From the NCBI RefSeq assembly GCF_024223415.1, contig NZ_CP100501.1: a DNA stretch of 64,000 nucleotides, one strand, 5' to 3'. The notes beneath the pieces were generated by a model that did not search any database, had not been told where the DNA came from, and saw nothing but the letters and a program-made list of their open reading frames with translations. Within the stretch, counting starts at the first letter, position 1; every line of letters begins with the position of its first letter. Below are positions 1,828 to 56,599 of this stretch, one piece after another. The DNA comes from Escherichia coli (GTDB lineage Bacteria; Pseudomonadota; Gammaproteobacteria; Enterobacterales; Enterobacteriaceae). A program made the position numbers and the translations under genes.

Positions 1828-2079
1828 ATGCCTAACATCATTCTGTCTGACACCAGTGCAAGTGTCAGTGAACTGAAAAAAAATCCTATGGCTACAGTCA
1901 GTGCCGGAGATGGTTATCCTGTCGCCATTCTTAACCGGAATCAGCCGGCATTCTACTGTGTGCCTGCGGAACTCTATGAAAGGATGCTTGATGCGCTGGA
2001 TGACCAGGAACTGGTGAAACTGGTTACTGAACGCAGCAATCAGCCACTGCATGATGTGGACCTGGACAGTTATTTATGA
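1828..2079 (+). CDS. stbD: Phd/YefM-type antitoxin (StbD/RelB-like)
   Basis: 83-aa ORF immediately upstream of and overlapping (ATGA) a RelE-like toxin; small acidic C-terminus typical of antitoxins. Confidence 0.8.
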   Translation: MPNIILSDTSASVSELKKNPMATVSAGDGYPVAILNRNQPAFYCVPAELYERMLDALDDQELVKLVTERSNQPLHDVDLDSYL

Positions 2080-2363
2080 CTTATACAGTAAAATTCAGGG
2101 ATGATGCGCTCAAAGAATGGCTGAAACTGGATAAATCCATTCAACAGCAGTTTGCGAAAAAACTAAAGAAATGCAGCGAAAATCCTCATATTCCTTCCGC
2201 AAAACTGCGTGGATTAAAAGACTGCTACAAAATCAAACTTCGCGCATCGGGGTTTCGTCTGGTCTATCAGGTTATTGATGACATGCTAATTATTGCGGTT
2301 GTCGCGGTAGGTAAACGTGAACGTAGTAACGTTTATAATCTCGCCAGTGAGAGAATGAGATAG
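2076..2363 (+). CDS. stbE: RelE/StbE-family mRNA interferase toxin
   Basis: 95 aa; KLRGLKDCYKIKLRASGFRLVYQV..VGKRERS matches remembered E. coli RelE. Confidence 0.9.
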   Translation: MTYTVKFRDDALKEWLKLDKSIQQQFAKKLKKCSENPHIPSAKLRGLKDCYKIKLRASGFRLVYQVIDDMLIIAVVAVGKRERSNVYNLASERMR

Positions 2364-43451: not shown

Positions 43452-44042
43452 CTATACAGTAACAGTTTGCTGTTTCGCTCTAACTCTCAGAATTGTTTGC
43501 CGTGTGGTTCGGAATTCCCTGGCAATAGCACTTATACTTGCTCCAGACTTAATGTGTTCGAGTACCTTCTGTTTTTGTTCTTCATTTAATACCGGTGGGC
43601 GACCAAAACGTTTTCCTGCATCCCGTGCTCTTGCTATCCCTGAATAAGTTCGTTCAAGTAAAAGATCTCGTTCAAATTCAGCGACCGCTGAAATCACTTG
43701 CATTGTCATTTTTCCTGCCGGACTGGTCAGATCAACACCACCTAATGCCAGGCAATGTACCCTGATGCCAGATTCGGTCAGTTGCTCCACTGTTTTCCTG
43801 ATATCCATTGCATTACGACCGAGGCGATCCAGTTTTGTGACTATCAATACATCGCCACTTTCCAGACGATCAAGCAACCGGTTAAAACCTGGACGTTCAC
43901 TGGCTGCTACTGATCCACTAATTTGTTCTTCGATTATTCGTTGGGGTCTGACGTTAAAACCCGCGCTTTCGATTTCCCGACGTTGATTTTCGGTCGTCTG
44001 TTCCAGAGTGGAAACCCGACAATAGGCAAAAATTCGAGACAT
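43452..44042 (-). CDS. Serine recombinase (resolvase/invertase family)
   Basis: N-terminal catalytic motif [10 protein letters not shown]-terminal HTH; 196 aa. Confidence 0.85.
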
Positions 44043-44542: not shown

Positions 44543-44827
44543 ATGCAAATGAAAAACAATACCGCACAGGCAACAAAAGTCATTACCGCGCATGTGCCAT
44601 TACCAATGGCTGATAAAGTCGACCAGATGGCCGCCAGACTGGAACGCTCCCGGGGCTGGGTTATCAAACAGGCGCTTTCTGCATGGCTTGCCCAGGAGGA
44701 GGAGCGTAATCGCCTGACGCTGGAAGCCCTGGACGATGTGAAATCCGGACAGGTTATCGACCATCAGGCTGTACAGGCCTGGGCGGACAGCCTCAGTACT
44801 GACAATCCGTTACCGGTGCCACGCTGA
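44543..44827 (+). CDS. RHH (CopG/ParD-like) antitoxin
   Basis: 94 aa; upstream of and contiguous with a ParE/RelE-fold toxin gene. Confidence 0.7.
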   Translation: MQMKNNTAQATKVITAHVPLPMADKVDQMAARLERSRGWVIKQALSAWLAQEEERNRLTLEALDDVKSGQVIDHQAVQAWADSLSTDNPLPVPR

Positions 44828-45102
44828 TGGAACTGAAGTGGACCAGTAAGGCGCTTTCTGATTTGGCGCGGTTATATGATTTTCTGGTGCTGGCCAGTAA
44901 ACCTGCGGCCACCAGAACGGTGCAGTCCCTGACACAGGCACCGGTCATTCTGTTAACTCATCCACGTATGGGAGAACAGTTGTTTCAGTTTGAACCCAGG
45001 GAGGTCAGACGGATTTTTGCTGGCGAGTACGAAATCCGTTACGAACTTAATGGCCAGACTATTTATGTATTGCGCCTGTGGCACACACGAGAAAACAGGT
45101 AG
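44827..45102 (+). CDS. ParE/RelE-superfamily toxin
   Basis: 91 aa; YEIRYELNGQTIYVLRLWHTRE is typical of ParE/RelE C-termini. Confidence 0.75.
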   Translation: MELKWTSKALSDLARLYDFLVLASKPAATRTVQSLTQAPVILLTHPRMGEQLFQFEPREVRRIFAGEYEIRYELNGQTIYVLRLWHTRENR

Positions 45103-49395: not shown

Positions 49396-49812
49396 TTACT
49401 TCACCCAGTCTTCCAGCACCAGGTCAGGCACTCGCTCAAATTCTCTTGTATTATTCGTTACCAGTATCGCCCCGGCGGCGATGGCGTGCCCGGCAATCGC
49501 CGTGTCGTTCGGGCCGATCGGCGTCCCGGCCAGCCGCAGTGCCACTTTAATCTTCGTGGTGGCGTCTACTGCGGCGCGATCCCAGGGCAGGATGGCATCG
49601 AGGCGGGCGCAGAATTCATCGACCAGTTGGACGTGACGTGGTGAGGCCTTTGGGCCGGTAGCCCCGAAGCGCATTTCAGAGTAGGTGATGGCCGAGACCA
49701 CTATACGGTGGCCGCGTAGCACCGCCTGCTCCAGACGCTTCAGGACGGCTTCTGGCTGTTCACGCATGATGAACGAGCAGATACAGGTATCAAGCATATA
49801 AGTCTTGTTCAC
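49396..49812 (-). CDS. vapC: PIN-domain toxin VapC
   Basis: 138 aa; N-terminal YMLDTCIC with acidic residue and PIN-like spacing; overlaps the antitoxin gene. Confidence 0.85.
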   Translation of the reverse strand: MNKTYMLDTCICSFIMREQPEAVLKRLEQAVLRGHRIVVSAITYSEMRFGATGPKASPRHVQLVDEFCARLDAILPWDRAAVDATTKIKVALRLAGTPIGPNDTAIAGHAIAAGAILVTNNTREFERVPDLVLEDWVK

Positions 49813-50039
49813 AGGTTAAATCGCCCTTCGTCGCTGACAACATCCTCGCGCTCCGCCATAAAATCTGGATCGGCTTTTTCGTACTCTAGGAATGATCCCC
49901 AGGTTGGCCGGACGGGGCGCAGGATGATGCTGTCCCCTTCCCGGACGATCTCGAGCTCGCTCACCCCCTCAAAATCCAGATCACGAGGCAGACGGATGGC
50001 GCGGTTGTTGCCATTTTTAAATATCGATACGGTTCTCAT
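49809..50039 (-). CDS. vapB: AbrB/SpoVT-type antitoxin VapB
   Basis: 76 aa; MRTVSIFKNGNNRAIRLPRD typical of VapB/MazE swapped-hairpin antitoxins. Confidence 0.85.
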   Translation of the reverse strand: MRTVSIFKNGNNRAIRLPRDLDFEGVSELEIVREGDSIILRPVRPTWGSFLEYEKADPDFMAEREDVVSDEGRFNL

Positions 50040-51013: not shown

Positions 51014-51799
51014 ATGCAGCACCTGCCGGCACCGATCCACCATGCCCGGGATGTCGCTCAGCTTCCTGTTGCCATCGATTATCCGGCAGCGCTGGCACTC
51101 CGCCAGATGTCGATGGTTCATGATGAACTGCCAAAATACCTGCTGGCCCCTGAAGTGAGCGCCCTGCTCCATTACGTCCCGGATCTGCGCCGCAAGATGC
51201 TGCTGGCCACACTGTGGAACACCGGTGCGCGCATTAATGAAGCACTGGCGCTGACGCGGGGGGATTTTTCGCTTGCGCCCCCGTATCCGTTTGTGCAGCT
51301 GGCCACTCTGAAGCAGCGGACAGAAAAAGCCGCCAGGACGGCAGGAAGAATGCCCGCCGGTCAGCAGACTCACCGGCTGGTTCCGCTTTCCGACACCTGG
51401 TACCTCAGCCAGCTGCAGACGATGGTGGCCACACTGAAAATCCCCATGGAACGGCGTAATAAACGAACAGGCAGGACAGAGAAAGCGCGGATCTGGGAAG
51501 TGACGGACAGAACGGTCAGGACCTGGATTGGGGAGGCGGTTGCCGCCGCTGCCGCTGATGGTGTGACGTTCTCTGTCCCGGTCACGCCACATACGTTCCG
51601 CCATTCCTATGCGATGCACATGCTGTATGCCGGTATACCGCTGAAGGTCCTGCAGAGCCTGATGGGGCATAAGTCCATCAGCTCAACGGAGGTCTACACG
51701 AAGGTGTTTGCACTGGATGTCGCGGCGCGCCATCGTGTGCAGTTCGCTATGCCGGAAGCCGATGCGGTAGCGCTGATAAAACAACTTGAGAGGCGTTAA
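51014..51799 (+). CDS. Tyrosine site-specific recombinase (XerC/XerD-like; probable multimer resolution)
   Basis: Catalytic box II HTFRHSYAMHM..LMGH..EVYTKV. Confidence 0.8.
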   Translation: MQHLPAPIHHARDVAQLPVAIDYPAALALRQMSMVHDELPKYLLAPEVSALLHYVPDLRRKMLLATLWNTGARINEALALTRGDFSLAPPYPFVQLATLKQRTEKAARTAGRMPAGQQTHRLVPLSDTWYLSQLQTMVATLKIPMERRNKRTGRTEKARIWEVTDRTVRTWIGEAVAAAAADGVTFSVPVTPHTFRHSYAMHMLYAGIPLKVLQSLMGHKSISSTEVYTKVFALDVAARHRVQFAMPEADAVALIKQLERR

Positions 51800-52059
51800 A
51801 AAGCCGTATTCGCGGTTCAGTCAAGGGGGAGCTGGTGCATCCATCTGTGGAAGATAGAGCACCAAACTCATAGAGGCCACGTTCTCAGGCCAGAACAGTC
51901 TTATATCTCTGGCGCTGACAACCCATAGTACTTGCCTGGATGGGAAACTCTTCTTGTGCTGAGCGTAAGAGCCATCTGCCGGAACGCTTCCTCGCCAGTT
52001 CGCTCGCTACGCACAGTTACATGGCTGCGGCGAGGGCTGCCTGATTCTAATAATGATAT

Positions 52060-52390
52060 TTCAGCATGATAGCAGCAATAAAATAGATTGCAGCTATCAT
52101 GCTGTACACATACGGCCTAGCGCTCTGCTTATGTTATGCTATCTGCAATCTTGCGGCAATCTTGCTTCATCTGTCGATGCGATTCTGAATGAGGTTTCTT
52201 TTATTGTTAACGTGACACAAGTATTCGGCTGTCAATTCCAGCACTCTGCTAAGTAGCAAGATTTAATCTTGCTACTAGATTTTTTATTGTTGCAATCTTG
52301 CTGCAAGCTGTTATCTTGTTCTGGAAGAGTTACTCTACCTAACCTCAATCTGGTTTATATTGATGTTTGCTGCAAGATAGCAGCAAGTAA
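52060..52390. promoter_or_regulatory. Centromere-like repeat array upstream of parA (GCAATCTTGC / GCAAGAT palindromic units)
   Basis: Multiple ATCTTGC..GCAAGAT units in the promoter region; similar units recur at 53410-53480. Confidence 0.55.
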
Positions 52391-52400
52391 AGGGGGCTAA

Positions 52401-53033
52401 ATGGCCTGGATAGTTGGTTTTATTTCTCAGAAAGGTGGTGTGGGCAAAAGCACTAAAGCGAGAGCGTTAGCGCGTGAAGCATCCGCCTGTGGTATCAAAA
52501 CAAAATTAGCTGATCTCGACTTGGAACAGGCAACGAGTGCTGAGTGGCATCGTAGACGTCTGTCAGCTGGTTTGTCACCGGTTGCTTCAGTTGAAGTGTT
52601 TTCAACAGCAAAGCAGGCGATAGAATCTGCCGGCGATTTTGACCTTCTGATTCTTGATGGCCCTGCTCGTGCAAGTAAAGGTACTTCAGAAATTGCTAAG
52701 GTCGCCGACCTTATCGTCCAGCCAACGGGGGCCTCCCTTGACGATCTTGTCCCGGCAATTAAAGTTTTCAACGCGTTGGTAAAAGAAGGTATACCACGTT
52801 CAAAACTGGTCTTCGCTTTAAGCCGGGTAGGTACCGAAGCGGAAGAGCTGGATGCTCGTGCATATATCAGTGAAGCAGGTTATGAAACTTTATCTGGATG
52901 CCTTTTTGAGAAGCCAGCATACAGAAAAGCGATGAATTCAGGACTCGCTGTGACAGAAACACGTTATAAAGGTTTAAACGAGAGAGCTGATGAACTTATC
53001 CAGGCACTCATCGATAAGATTGGAGAAGAGTAA
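52401..53033 (+). CDS. parA: ParA-family partition ATPase (small, type Ib)
   Basis: Deviant Walker A SQKGGVGKST; 210 aa. Confidence 0.85.
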   Translation: MAWIVGFISQKGGVGKSTKARALAREASACGIKTKLADLDLEQATSAEWHRRRLSAGLSPVASVEVFSTAKQAIESAGDFDLLILDGPARASKGTSEIAKVADLIVQPTGASLDDLVPAIKVFNALVKEGIPRSKLVFALSRVGTEAEELDARAYISEAGYETLSGCLFEKPAYRKAMNSGLAVTETRYKGLNERADELIQALIDKIGEE

Positions 53034-53407
53034 TGGCTGATGCGTCAAAACTTAGAACTAAAAGAACCCGTAGTGGGTTGGGGGTACCCCCGGGCCCCGA
53101 CGAAGTGGCTACCAGCTTGAATGCGCCTGAGATAGCTCCGGCTGTCGCTGCCACTGATGTTCAGAGACAACAGGCAGACTCATCGCCAGTGCACCATGAG
53201 CCTGTGGTTACGCAAACTGTGACCGAGGTATATACCCGCCGCGATGGCCGTTCTGCCAGAAAAACAAACAGGACGCTGGCATTTGCAACACGTGTCACAC
53301 CTGCTTTCGACCAAGAGATCCGGGATATCGCAGAGCGTGAGGGGTTGAAACTGGTGGAAGTTCTGGAAAAAGCAGTTGAGGCATATAAGGAAAAACAGGG
53401 CTATTAA
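53033..53407 (+). CDS. Partition centromere-binding protein (ParG/ParB-like partner of ParA)
   Basis: 124 aa, immediately downstream of and overlapping parA; basic N-terminus. Confidence 0.55.
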   Translation: MADASKLRTKRTRSGLGVPPGPDEVATSLNAPEIAPAVAATDVQRQQADSSPVHHEPVVTQTVTEVYTRRDGRSARKTNRTLAFATRVTPAFDQEIRDIAEREGLKLVEVLEKAVEAYKEKQGY

Positions 53408-53409
53408 TC

Positions 53410-53620
53410 CGGGATGCAGCAATCTTGCTGCATTCTTTTTTTGTGTGCAATCTTGCAGCAAGATTTATGCTAGATAAATGCTAGATTGCTGCAAGATAAA
53501 TGATATAATGCTCAAATTGAGTAGTTAACTGCCCCAGGTAAGTACGCAGCTTGAGTACTTACCTGTGGTTTATGAACGTATTTACTTAATGTGAGTAGTT
53601 ATTGGGTGAAGATTAATACT
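53410..53620. promoter_or_regulatory. Second repeat array (GCAATCTTGC units followed by TGAGTA-containing repeats) upstream of parM/stbA
   Basis: Direct and inverted repeats CTCAAATTGAGTA / CTTGAGTACTTAC / TGTGAGTAGTT / ACTCAAATTGAGTAT. Confidence 0.5.
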
Positions 53621-53645
53621 CAAATTGAGTATAAATGGAGATGGT

Positions 53646-54620
53646 ATGAGAATTTTTTGCGATGATGGTTCTACAAATGTGAAACTTGCCTGGTTTGAAG
53701 GCAAGACGCTGAAAAGTGCGGTATCAGTGAACTCTTTTCGCCATAACTGGAAAGTCGAGGGCTTAGGCAGCAGTCGTACCTATAACTATTTGCTTGATGG
53801 CCGTAAATATACCTACGACCCGGTCAGCGAAGATGCGATCAGCACGACTCATATTGAGTATCAGTACTCTGATACAAATGTGTTGGCAGTTCACCACGCA
53901 TTACTGAACAGTGGAATTGAACCCCAGGAGATCGATCTCACCGTTACGTTACCTATCAGCGAGTTTTACACGGCCGACTGCCAGAAAAATACGCTTAACA
54001 TTGAGAGAAAAATTCGCAACCTGATGCGGGAAGTCACCCTGAACAAAGGGGGAACTTTTACCATTAAAAGCGTTGAAGTGATGCCTGAATCACTCCCGGC
54101 TGTATTTACTCGCCTAGTTGCTGACAATGTTGGTCAGTACGAAAAATCATTGGTTATCGATCTCGGTGGTACAACTCTGGATGTCGGGGTTATTGTTGGC
54201 CAGTTTGAGGATGTTTCGGCTGTACATGGTAATCCTGATATTGGTGTATCAATGGTCACGAAAGCCACGCTCACTGCACTGAAAATGGCCAGCAGTGATA
54301 CCAGTCCAATGATTGCTGACGAGTTGATCAAAAACAGGAAGAACCTGGATTTTGTGGGGCAGGTTGTAAATGAGGTTTCTAAACTAAATCTGGTGCTGGA
54401 TACCATTGATACAGCGATAAATAAACTGGGCGAGCTAGTTGTTGATGATTTGCTGCAGTATCGAAACGTAAACCGCGTATATATTGTCGGAGGCGGGGCT
54501 GCACTCATTGCTGATGCTGTTCGTAAGGCATGGAACCACCTTGGCGAAAAGGTGGTTCTTATGGATGAACCTCAGACAGCGCTGGTCCAGGCTATTGCAC
54601 GCTTCAAAGCGGAGGAGTAA
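53646..54620 (+). CDS. stbA: Actin-like partition ATPase ParM/StbA (type II)
   Basis: N-terminal DDGSTNVK phosphate-1 motif, DLGGTTLD, YIVGGGA motifs of actin/ParM fold. Confidence 0.85.
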   Translation: MRIFCDDGSTNVKLAWFEGKTLKSAVSVNSFRHNWKVEGLGSSRTYNYLLDGRKYTYDPVSEDAISTTHIEYQYSDTNVLAVHHALLNSGIEPQEIDLTVTLPISEFYTADCQKNTLNIERKIRNLMREVTLNKGGTFTIKSVEVMPESLPAVFTRLVADNVGQYEKSLVIDLGGTTLDVGVIVGQFEDVSAVHGNPDIGVSMVTKATLTALKMASSDTSPMIADELIKNRKNLDFVGQVVNEVSKLNLVLDTIDTAINKLGELVVDDLLQYRNVNRVYIVGGGAALIADAVRKAWNHLGEKVVLMDEPQTALVQAIARFKAEE

Positions 54621-54623
54621 TCG

Positions 54624-55016
54624 ATGTACGACGGCGAAGAAAGGAAAAAACTTTCACTCTACCTTCACCCGGAGGACTCTGCCGATTGTCTTGCACTGGC
54701 TGAAATCGAAACTGTTCCCCGGAAAAAACGGGGGGAGTTATATCGGCAGGCTTTGATAACCGGCCTGATAATGCATCAGCTTGATGAGAGAATTCCCGCC
54801 GTGTTAACCGCGCTATTCACCAGAGAACTGAATGCGGATGAGGTCATTAGTCAGATTGCCAGGATAACAGGCTGGAAACCCTCCTCCGGTGATTTAAAAG
54901 AGGTACTGAAGGCGTTGGGAGGGCTTCAGAGTACAGTTTCACCAGAACTCTCTCAGGATGACGGTGAACAGGCCCGTCTGAAAGCGGCTAGGGTGAAGAT
55001 GCAAAAGCTAATCTAA
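54624..55016 (+). CDS. stbB: ParR/StbB partition adaptor
   Basis: 130 aa downstream of parM; operon context. Confidence 0.7.
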   Translation: MYDGEERKKLSLYLHPEDSADCLALAEIETVPRKKRGELYRQALITGLIMHQLDERIPAVLTALFTRELNADEVISQIARITGWKPSSGDLKEVLKALGGLQSTVSPELSQDDGEQARLKAARVKMQKLI

Positions 55017-55672
55017 AAAAGTCTCGCTCCGTGAAACCTGCAAAATTTCTCGGGGTGTGCGGCTTAATTTTTAGATTTCCGCGTTTCCCGTCATTTGAGT
55101 CAATGGAGTGCTGGTTGACAGCTCCCTGCTCTGAAGGACGGGGATTCCCACATATGCAGCCAGATTTCCGGCTAGTGTGGTTTCAGACGTTGTTCGATTT
55201 CATTCTGTAGCGCCTGAAGTGTGCCTGATTTGAGGTTTTTTGTGCTCTGGCGGTCGAAAAGAATTTCAATGCGGATCATGTTCTCATCTCCCTTTTATTT
55301 TACTGTGTATATATACAGTATTCTAATAACTGAATCCACACACAGTCAAATGTCATTGTTGTGACTAAAAAACGCTCAATTCTCTGAGAGTGTGGCTGTA
55401 TGCCTGCTGTGGACTGCTGTGTCCAGCTTATCCACAGCATTTTGTGCACGGTTCTGTGGACAAAATACCTGGTTACCCAGGCCGTGCCGGCACGTTAACC
55501 GGGCTGCATCCGATGCAAGTGTGTCGCTGTCGCCGGCCTTCTCACCCGGTCACGTTTCGTCGTTCCTCCTCCACGAGCTGCGGCTTCGGGGCCGCACCTG
55601 CATTCGTATGCGGTCGCCCGGTTACAGGTGCGGCACGGCCTGATGGAGGCCGCATGTGAGAGGAGAATTCCC

Positions 55673-56599
55673 ATGCCAAACTGGTGCTCAAATCGTATGT
55701 ATTTTTCTGGTGAACCGGCACAGATTGCTGAGATTAAACGACTGGCCAGCGGTGCAGTCACACCGTTTTATCGCCGCGCCACAAATGAAGGTATTCAGCT
55801 GTTTCTGGCCGGAAGTGCCGGACTTCTGCAGACCACTGAAGATGTGCGGTTTGAACCATGTCCCGGACTGACGGCTGCCGGACGTGGCGTTGTATCGCCG
55901 GAGAATATCGCGTTCACCCGCTGGCTGACATACCTGCAGGACGGTGTACTGCTGGATGAGCAAAACTGCCTGATGCTGCATGAACTCTGGCTGCAGAGCG
56001 GTACTGGACAGCGTCGCTGGGAAGGATTACCGGACGATGTCAGGGATACCATCACCGCACTTTTCACCGCAAAAAGAGGTGACTGGTGTGGCTTCTGGAG
56101 TAACGAAGATGTATCGGTGTGGTGGAACCGTCTGTGTGACAACGTACTGCCGGAAAAAACCATGCCGTTTGACCTGCTGACGGTTCTGCCCACCCGCCTG
56201 GATGTTGAAGTGAATGGCTTTAACGGTGGTGTTCTGAACGGTGTTCCTTCTGCATATCACTGGTATACGGAACGGTATGGCGTGAAGTGGCCTGTGGGGT
56301 ATGAGGTGAATATCAGTAATCAGGGAGACAACTTCATTAAGGTGGATTTCGACACGCCGTGGTGTCAGCCGGAAAGCGACGTTATTGCAGAATTAAGCCG
56401 CCGTTTCAGCTGCACGCTGGAGCACTGGTATGCCGAACAGGGCTGTGATTTCTGTGGCTGGCAGTTGTATGAGCGCGGAGAGCTCGTTGATGTGCTGTGG
56501 GGGGAACTGGAATGGTCTTCCCCGACAGATGACGATGAGCTGCCGGAAGTCACCGGACCTGCGTGGATAGTCGACAATGTGGCGCATTATGGCGGATGA
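55673..56599 (+). CDS. Leading-region hypothetical protein (308 aa)
   Basis: GAGGAG RBS; Cys/Trp-rich; no confident family assignment. Confidence 0.55.
   Translation: MPNWCSNRMYFSGEPAQIAEIKRLASGAVTPFYRRATNEGIQLFLAGSAGLLQTTEDVRFEPCPGLTAAGRGVVSPENIAFTRWLTYLQDGVLLDEQNCLMLHELWLQSGTGQRRWEGLPDDVRDTITALFTAKRGDWCGFWSNEDVSVWWNRLCDNVLPEKTMPFDLLTVLPTRLDVEVNGFNGGVLNGVPSAYHWYTERYGVKWPVGYEVNISNQGDNFIKVDFDTPWCQPESDVIAELSRRFSCTLEHWYAEQGCDFCGWQLYERGELVDVLWGELEWSSPTDDDELPEVTGPAWIVDNVAHYGG

Follow-up and report, generated by a model that had tools for sequence, protein, structure and literature searches.

Do two partition systems of different types, lying side by side on one plasmid, record a recent joining of parts from different plasmids, or can such a pair be inherited as one unit? 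The question is raised by positions 52,060 to 55,016 of a 64,000-nucleotide stretch of Escherichia coli DNA (NCBI RefSeq assembly GCF_024223415.1, contig NZ_CP100501.1; hereafter, the window), where parA, a parB-like gene, parM and parR follow one another. A first-pass annotation had seen here a small type Ib ParA and its partner directly followed by a type II ParM/ParR pair, and had taken this, together with two site-specific recombinases and three toxin-antitoxin (TA) modules, as a sign that more than one ancestral plasmid had contributed to the backbone. The former statement is borne out by protein families, structures and repeats; the latter is not supported, since the same four genes occur as one inherited block in IncI-type, Pectobacterium and Providencia plasmids. 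The region is very probably a co-directional double partition locus, type Ib plus type II, inherited as a single four-gene module.

Four intact genes of two partition systems

All four genes are co-directional on the plus strand (Table 1). The stop codon of parA and the ATG of parB share a TAATG overlap, suggesting translational coupling. By Pfam and NCBIfam, ParA belongs to the ParA/MinD-type P-loop ATPases. It has the traits of the small ParA proteins of type Ib systems (about 200-230 residues), namely a deviant Walker A box, KGGVGKST, at residues 11-18 and no N-terminal DNA-binding domain; its best PDB match is the ParF of TP228, at a weak E of 5e-7. The gene of a small putative centromere-binding protein lies directly 3' of parA in the same operon, as in other type Ib systems, and the pair is kept in every related locus.

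The second half of the block is of type II. ParM is an actin-like ATPase matching StbA_N (2e-68) and ParM_N (4e-43) in Pfam and the R1 ParM in the PDB (E 2.6e-82), and the phosphate-binding motifs DDGST and DLGGTT are present in its sequence. Its start is the annotated ATG at 53646, preceded by a good Shine-Dalgarno sequence, GGAG; a 331-residue open reading frame (ORF) starting from TTG at 53625 was rejected as a mechanical artefact. The adaptor ParR, encoded downstream of parM as is usual for type II, matches Plasmid_stab_B (3e-28) and, over residues 2-129, the PDB entry 2JD3, named StbB protein (E 1.3e-34). We take this entry to be the ParR of pB171; its sequence is 99% identical to that of a protein encoded on a pB171-type plasmid. 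None of the four genes looks decayed, and the ratio of nonsynonymous to synonymous differences (pN/pS) is far below 1 in all of them (0.009/0.225 for parA and 0.029/0.194 for parB against the Klebsiella copy, 0.21/0.81 for parM against Pectobacterium), indicating purifying selection.

The partner of ParA is the least familiar of the four proteins. None of its 243 homologues has a Pfam domain, and a few are named "stability/partitioning determinant" by UniRef. Alignment of 28 of these homologues shows an invariant basic peptide at the N-terminus (MADASKLK.KR...LG.PPGPDEVATSLNAPEIAP), a linker varying in length and composition, and a highly conserved C-terminal block (Y.RRDGRSARKTNRTLAFATRVTP.FD.EIRDIAEREGLKLVEVLE.A..AYKEK.GY). 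In the AlphaFold model, the last 35 or so residues form two helices, with a block-mean predicted local distance difference test score (pLDDT) of 87-91 over residues 91-120. The top Foldseek matches of the model in the PDB are nearly all ribbon-helix-helix proteins (CopG, Arc, StnY, the ribbon-helix-helix domain of MatP, CdbA, NikA and ParG). The model and the alignment suggest that the partner is likely a type Ib centromere-binding protein, with a flexible tail that would stimulate ParA and, at its C-terminus, a ribbon-helix-helix domain.

Several observations weigh against the type Ib reading. The Foldseek E-values, at 2-9, are non-significant (target-normalised template modelling score 0.6-0.7, root-mean-square deviation about 1 Å over some 32 residues), and the mean pLDDT of the whole 124-residue model is 66, the remainder outside the C-terminal helices being of low confidence. 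Sequence profiles of the partner give no significant ribbon-helix-helix family, and ParA itself scores 93.6 bits against a cutoff of 180 for the NCBIfam equivalog ParA_partition. In a Pfam search of the partner at E up to 10, the ribbon-helix-helix families gave only scattered single-member matches, and its comparison with PDB sequences returned only noise. No similarity to pB171 ParB or to the R64 partner was detected by sequence and profile comparison.

Two kinds of repeats border the genes

The heptamer GCAAGAT occurs 15 times in the window, and ten of these copies fall within 52148-52378 and 53422-53497. About 0.07 copies would be expected in those ~460 bp (arithmetic from a shuffle mean of 9.45 per 64 kb), which excludes chance. 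The location of these repeats on both sides of the first operon had been correctly read by the first-pass annotation, but its description of GCAATCTTGC as palindromic was too strong: this sequence, present five times in the two arrays, is only a near-palindrome, with GCAA/TTGC arms around an asymmetric TC. A 10-bp unit, GCTGCAAGAT, is found in 17 copies at four loci with ParB proteins only 56-67% identical, and none of the eight operon flanks lacks it, while the flanking DNA is otherwise dissimilar. Such conservation across diverged loci fits the near-invariant C-terminal domain of the partner. The downstream array, too, is kept in the related loci. Short repeat arrays of the kind expected beside a type Ib operon are present on both flanks, and they are putative sites for the partner protein.

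Just before the downstream array lies a hairpin at 53411-53443 that was called by a terminator scan and has a predicted RNA fold of -16.2 kcal/mol (z -4.5). A hairpin with a U-run stands directly after the parB stop codon in the window, Pectobacterium, Providencia and Enterobacter (-16 to -19 kcal/mol, z -4.2 to -6.5), and the Klebsiella sequence after parB nearly matches that of the window hairpin. It is probable that this element is an intrinsic parAB terminator made of centromere units, which could double as the first downstream ParB site. Upstream of parA, the palindrome at 52252-52276 and its T-run also fold in a terminator-like manner (-14.7 kcal/mol, z -4.7), and this hairpin might insulate the par promoter from read-through of the integrase gene. 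A scan of the par region against Rfam found no known RNA.

Repeats containing TGAGTA precede parM, as had been noted from the start: five of the 22 copies in the window are gathered within 114 bp, at 53518-53631. They belong to four 15-bp palindromic sites of the type TACTCA-N3-TGAGTA, spaced 34, 40 and 34 bp from centre to centre. Before parM, Pectobacterium has four sites of the same type, Providencia three and a pB171-type plasmid two (GCTCAAATTGAGTA, TACTCAGATTGAGTA). The arrangement resembles the parC repeats that, in type II systems, stand upstream of parM and include its promoter, whose position here is a predicted one. The predicted extended -10 sequence, which matches that element perfectly, may be a parM promoter element, and a similar TG-n-TATAAG is present at the equivalent place in Providencia, as is TATGAT in the pB171-like locus. 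It counts against this promoter that a consensus scan, finding no -35 match, did not call it; the scan of the region gave no convincing parA promoter either, the promoter calls being a reading of the sequence.

The four genes travel together

Among the IncI1, IncI-gamma/K and cointegrate plasmids that carry the block at 99.7% identity are pCoo, pETEC_73 and an IncI1 plasmid from chicken; the block always lies between a ResD-like integrase and DUF1281/methylase/ardA/ssb/psiB genes. In Pectobacterium and Providencia plasmids, hosted by Pectobacteriaceae and Morganellaceae, the same tandem order is found with all four proteins diverged, ParM being 66-70% and ParR 43-53% identical to those of the window. 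ParA and ParB are, respectively, 98% and 94% identical in Klebsiella, 96% and 67% in Enterobacter, 82% and 59% in Pectobacterium, and 77% and 56% in Providencia. Since the four-gene order is kept across such diverged plasmids, it seems to be an old, co-inherited unit.

The parAB pair is present in 382 PLSDB records. A megablast of PLSDB with a query running from the 3' end of parA to parR matched 372 records, 301 of them complete, and every substantial match to the parMR allele in these 372 also covers the parAB part. At megablast sensitivity, the parMR allele was not seen in PLSDB apart from this parAB. That it might be common without parAB had been supposed from 4,163 plasmid matches of a wider query, and was refuted by the narrower one.

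Comparison with known partition loci

Adjacent partition systems of different types have long been known from pB171, R27 and Shigella pINV, and a census of 2026 counted 971 PLSDB plasmids that combine ribbon-helix-helix type I with type II systems (PMC13245405). The present locus adds no new principle, such combinations having been counted and the double locus of pB171 dissected already. The double par of the E. coli virulence plasmid pB171 was reportedly described by Ebersbach and Gerdes in 2001 as par1, a type II parMRC, and par2, a type Ib parABC. Judged by sequence, the locus of the window has the hallmarks of both type Ib (with the fold of its partner protein graded as likely) and type II, but lacks two features that define pB171.

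As in pB171, the type Ib and type II systems are adjacent and share one intergenic cis region, and the type Ib operon lies between two repeat arrays, the order in pB171 par2 being parC1-parA-parB-parC2 (PMC4270457). ParM and ParR are 67% and about 47% identical to those of the pB171-type plasmid, and the pB171-like locus also has TACTCA-N3-TGAGTA upstream of parM and a ResD-like integrase as neighbour. On the other hand, its parA and parB are on the opposite strand, divergent from the shared parC1, whereas all four genes are co-directional here. The array beside parM is, consequently, the downstream one and not the promoter-bearing one. The other missing feature is homology with par2: ParA shares only 29-30% identity with its counterpart, and no similarity is detectable between the partner proteins. 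The repeat unit also differs, and there are four ParR-type palindromes instead of two.

The IncI1 plasmid R64 and the IncF virulence plasmid pAA-EA11 carry a tandem parA-parB-parM-parR with the same order, orientation and neighbours, being flanked by the integrase to the left and by DUF1281/leading-region genes to the right. Their proteins, however, are distant (ParA 23-26%, ParM 38-39% and ParR 27-30% identical, ParB without similarity), and this locus appears to be an alternative allele of the whole module. We found no experimental study of the R64-type tandem in the literature. RefSeq gives the 102-residue partner of the R64-type ParA in pAA-EA11 (NC_018666, 27380-27688) the name "molecular chaperone GroEL"; the protein is almost certainly a mis-annotated small centromere-binding protein.

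The IncI plasmid pESBL has a type Ib locus established by experiment, in which ParB binds GATAACAA octamers on either side of the operon, and its par deletion leads to mis-segregation (PMC7602700). Like that of the window, the ParA of pESBL is small and has a Walker A box; its partner, of about 100 residues, belongs to no recognisable family, and the locus lies in the same general backbone slot. It differs in that its ParA is 26% identical, the operon is inverted, and neither parMR nor an integrase is annotated beside it; the GATAACAA octamer is absent from the window arrays. The idea that pESBL carries the R64-type allele was rejected, as R64 is devoid of GATAACAA arrays and the pESBL cassette is single, different and inverted.

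More remote relatives are TP228 ParF/ParG and the delta/omega pair of pSM19035, which share a small ParA-type ATPase and a partner whose flexible N-terminal tail is followed by a ribbon-helix-helix domain at the C-terminus, the latter being probable here. Sequence similarity to them is marginal, and their repeat units differ from those of the window. Taken together, the different cassettes found at the slot in different plasmid families indicate that cassette exchange has occurred at some time in evolution; it is not a feature of this plasmid's own assembly.

Neighbourhood of the locus

Table 1. Features of the par region and of the rest of the window (window coordinates)
Feature	Position	Strand	Remarks
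parA	52401-53033	+	210-residue Walker-type partition ATPase; Pfam CbiA/MipZ-type P-loop matches
parB-like gene	53033-53407	+	124 residues; putative centromere-binding protein; no Pfam/NCBIfam family
parM	53646-54620	+	324-residue actin-like segregation ATPase; StbA_N, ParM_N
parR	54624-55016	+	130-residue type II centromere-binding adaptor; Plasmid_stab_B
Upstream centromere/operator-like array	52062-52391		type Ib system; from repeat scan; putative sites
Long palindrome	52062-52104		upstream array; 18-nt arms
Two direct units	52145-52165		upstream array; 11 bp apart
Perfect palindrome AGTAGCAAGATT-T-AATCTTGCTACT, then T-run	52252-52276		upstream array; two GCAAGAT units
Three units	52292-52319		upstream array
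Inverted pair TTGCTGCAAGATAGCAGCAAG	52367-52391		just 5' of the parA Shine-Dalgarno sequence
Hairpin, then T-run	53411-53443	+	inverted unit pair TGCAGCAA-TC-TTGCTGCA (53415-53432); probable parAB terminator
Downstream centromere-like array	53446-53501		inverted pair (53446-53464) leading into direct units
Four exactly phased 11-bp direct units	starts 53458, 53469, 53480, 53491		GCAAGATTTAT / GCTAGATAAAT / GCTAGATTGCT / GCAAGATAAAT
Predicted extended -10 TGATATAAT for parMR	53501-53509	+	between last ParB unit and first ParR palindrome; read from sequence
parC-like array, type II	53509-53631		four 15-bp palindromic sites; upstream of parM
ParR-type site 1	53509-53523		TGCTCA-AAT-TGAGTA
ParR-type site 2	53543-53557		TACGCA-GCT-TGAGTA
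ParR-type site 3	53583-53597		TACTTA-ATG-TGAGTA
ParR-type site 4	53617-53631		TACTCA-AAT-TGAGTA
Tyrosine recombinase, ResD-like integrase	51014-51799	+	Pfam Phage_integrase 3.8e-18; 100% identical to pGF60-A integrase
Serine recombinase	43455-44042
RelE homologue (TA)	2076-2357		far from the par region
CopG/RelE-ParE TA module	44543-45099
VapBC TA module	49399-50039

The two site-specific recombinases and the three TA modules of the first-pass annotation are all present (Table 1). The product of the RelE homologue is 54% identical to what we take to be the sequence of E. coli K-12 RelE. On its left, the par slot has the ResD-like integrase as a conserved neighbour, and R64, pB171-like and pAA plasmids have the same one there. 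Overall, the window is an insertion sequence (IS)-rich mosaic, closest to IncF virulence plasmids of the avian pathogenic E. coli (APEC) type, with an IncI-type block inside; evidence for this mosaicism does not come from the double par locus. Two ALIL pseudoknots (Rfam RF01497), frameshift signals of IS3-family transposases, at 19142-19258 and 38132-38218, fit such an IS-rich mosaic.

Between the integrase gene and the par arrays lies an element of about 115 bp (51938-52052) with the inverted repeat CCTCGCC...GGCGAGG. Klebsiella plasmids have it beside repE, in either orientation, and a weak match lies near RepB of pAA-EA11. The element probably accounts for most of the matches of the wide query mentioned above. 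It may resemble the region of primosome assembly (single-strand initiation) close to the ColE1/pBR322 origin.

On the right, 49 bp at 55152-55200 share 96% identity with the DinI-like gene impC, found after parR in R64 and after the par locus in pESBL, and in pCoo-type plasmids a minus-strand ORF of 59 codons is annotated at the same place (about 55100-55279). As impCAB/umuDC are missing here, the 49 bp look like a deletion remnant. The DUF1281/Api92-like gene directly downstream (55628-56599) opens a block of methylase, DUF1380 and antirestriction-protein genes common to IncI-complex plasmids. The par locus borders leading-region genes.

Alternative explanations

It is improbable that each system descends from a different ancestral plasmid and that they met when the mosaic backbone formed. 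The idea draws on the mosaic character of the window, with its many IS elements and its blocks common to different plasmid groups, and on the variable type Ib cassette at the recombinase-adjacent slot, which is another tandem allele in R64 and pAA, divergent in pB171-like plasmids, and single and inverted in pESBL. It fails, however, to account for the exact four-gene block shared by many IncI-complex plasmids, for a tandem that persists with four diverged proteins in other bacterial families, and for a parMR allele that megablast does not find apart from parAB. Any joining would be ancient, and uninformative on this plasmid's own history. We consider it equally improbable that the GCAAGAT repeats serve as transcription signals only, operators and terminator hairpins, and not as centromeres. 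Two of the palindromes are indeed terminator-like hairpins with T-runs, and the promoter-proximal pair sits where a repressor would act. Terminators, on the other hand, need neither the 11-bp direct units at 53458-53501 nor the same unit on both flanks of four diverged loci. The type Ib repeats of pESBL, moreover, are operator and centromere at the same time (PMC7602700). Those of pB171 likewise combine both roles.

A more serious objection to the double module is that the type Ib half alone may matter for partition, with parMR being a dispensable passenger or having another role, such as aiding conjugative transfer. Several findings pull in this direction and away from a module in which both halves count. 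About 70 PLSDB records (71 of the 372) have parAB without a complete parMR; in Klebsiella NZ_CP023918 (4170-4240) and NZ_MH909338 (2881-3953), IncFIA-type, parMR was independently destroyed while parAB and the arrays are intact, IS3 having entered the ParR palindrome array in one of these two inspected examples and IS5 having interrupted parM behind its first 25 codons in the other. Such losses suggest that the type II half may contribute little. The one IncI plasmid tested by transposon sequencing (Tn-seq), pESBL, has a type Ib system only, and it is this par whose deletion causes mis-segregation. The two partition systems of SCP1 are reported to form a dominant/minor hierarchy (PMC13245405), a role of R1 ParM/ParR in transfer is cited in PMC8406263, and the locus adjoins leading-region genes. 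Against this, parM and parR are intact, with pN/pS well below 1 over a long divergence, the parC-like palindromes are conserved, the full tandem is kept in the large majority of the 372 records, and both systems are functional in R27 and Shigella pINV (PMC13245405). A parMR without importance for partition is, on balance, rather unlikely, and the inherited double module remains our preferred reading.

A possible working of the locus

If the double module acts as the pB171 par2, pESBL and TP228 systems do, an analogy on which the type Ib mechanism is built, ParB dimers would coat both arrays of the ~10-bp unit and its variants, whether direct or inverted. The basic N-terminal peptide of ParB would then stimulate nucleoid-bound ParA-ATP, and plasmid copies would become evenly spaced over the nucleoid. 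The promoter-proximal units at 52367-52391 could confer autorepression of parAB, whose transcript may end at the inverted unit pair and T-run after parB. In the type II half, ParR would bind the four palindromes and repress its own promoter, and would also nucleate or cap ParM filaments, which could push sister plasmids apart. We infer the pairing of each repeat with its protein, and partition activity itself, from these likenesses.

The two halves may also communicate. The last ParB unit extends up to the predicted parM -10, which suggests that ParB likely also modulates parMR expression; bound to the four direct units, it would cover the -35/spacer region of parM and so may regulate the type II operon. 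Ringgaard et al. reportedly found, in 2007, regulatory cross-talk at the double par of pB171, of which we propose a co-directional version here. It is possible, if less likely than not, that the 225-bp region between parB and parM is a single control and centromere region in which ParB sets type II expression, the two systems being wired hierarchically rather than acting as independent back-ups. If true, such wiring would explain the constant joint inheritance of the four genes.

Meaning of the finding

For this type Ib lineage, we found no experimental study in the literature, and its centromere-binding protein is annotated only as hypothetical. The lineage identified here is widespread: PLSDB has about 380 plasmids with it, from E. 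coli, Salmonella and Klebsiella, and many of these are conjugative resistance or virulence plasmids. Its likely centromere unit is now defined, and it travels with one pB171-par1-like parMR allele as a four-gene block. This could improve plasmid annotation and the prediction of partition-based incompatibility. Furthermore, the locus may offer a clean natural system for studying how two partition machines are coordinated on one plasmid.

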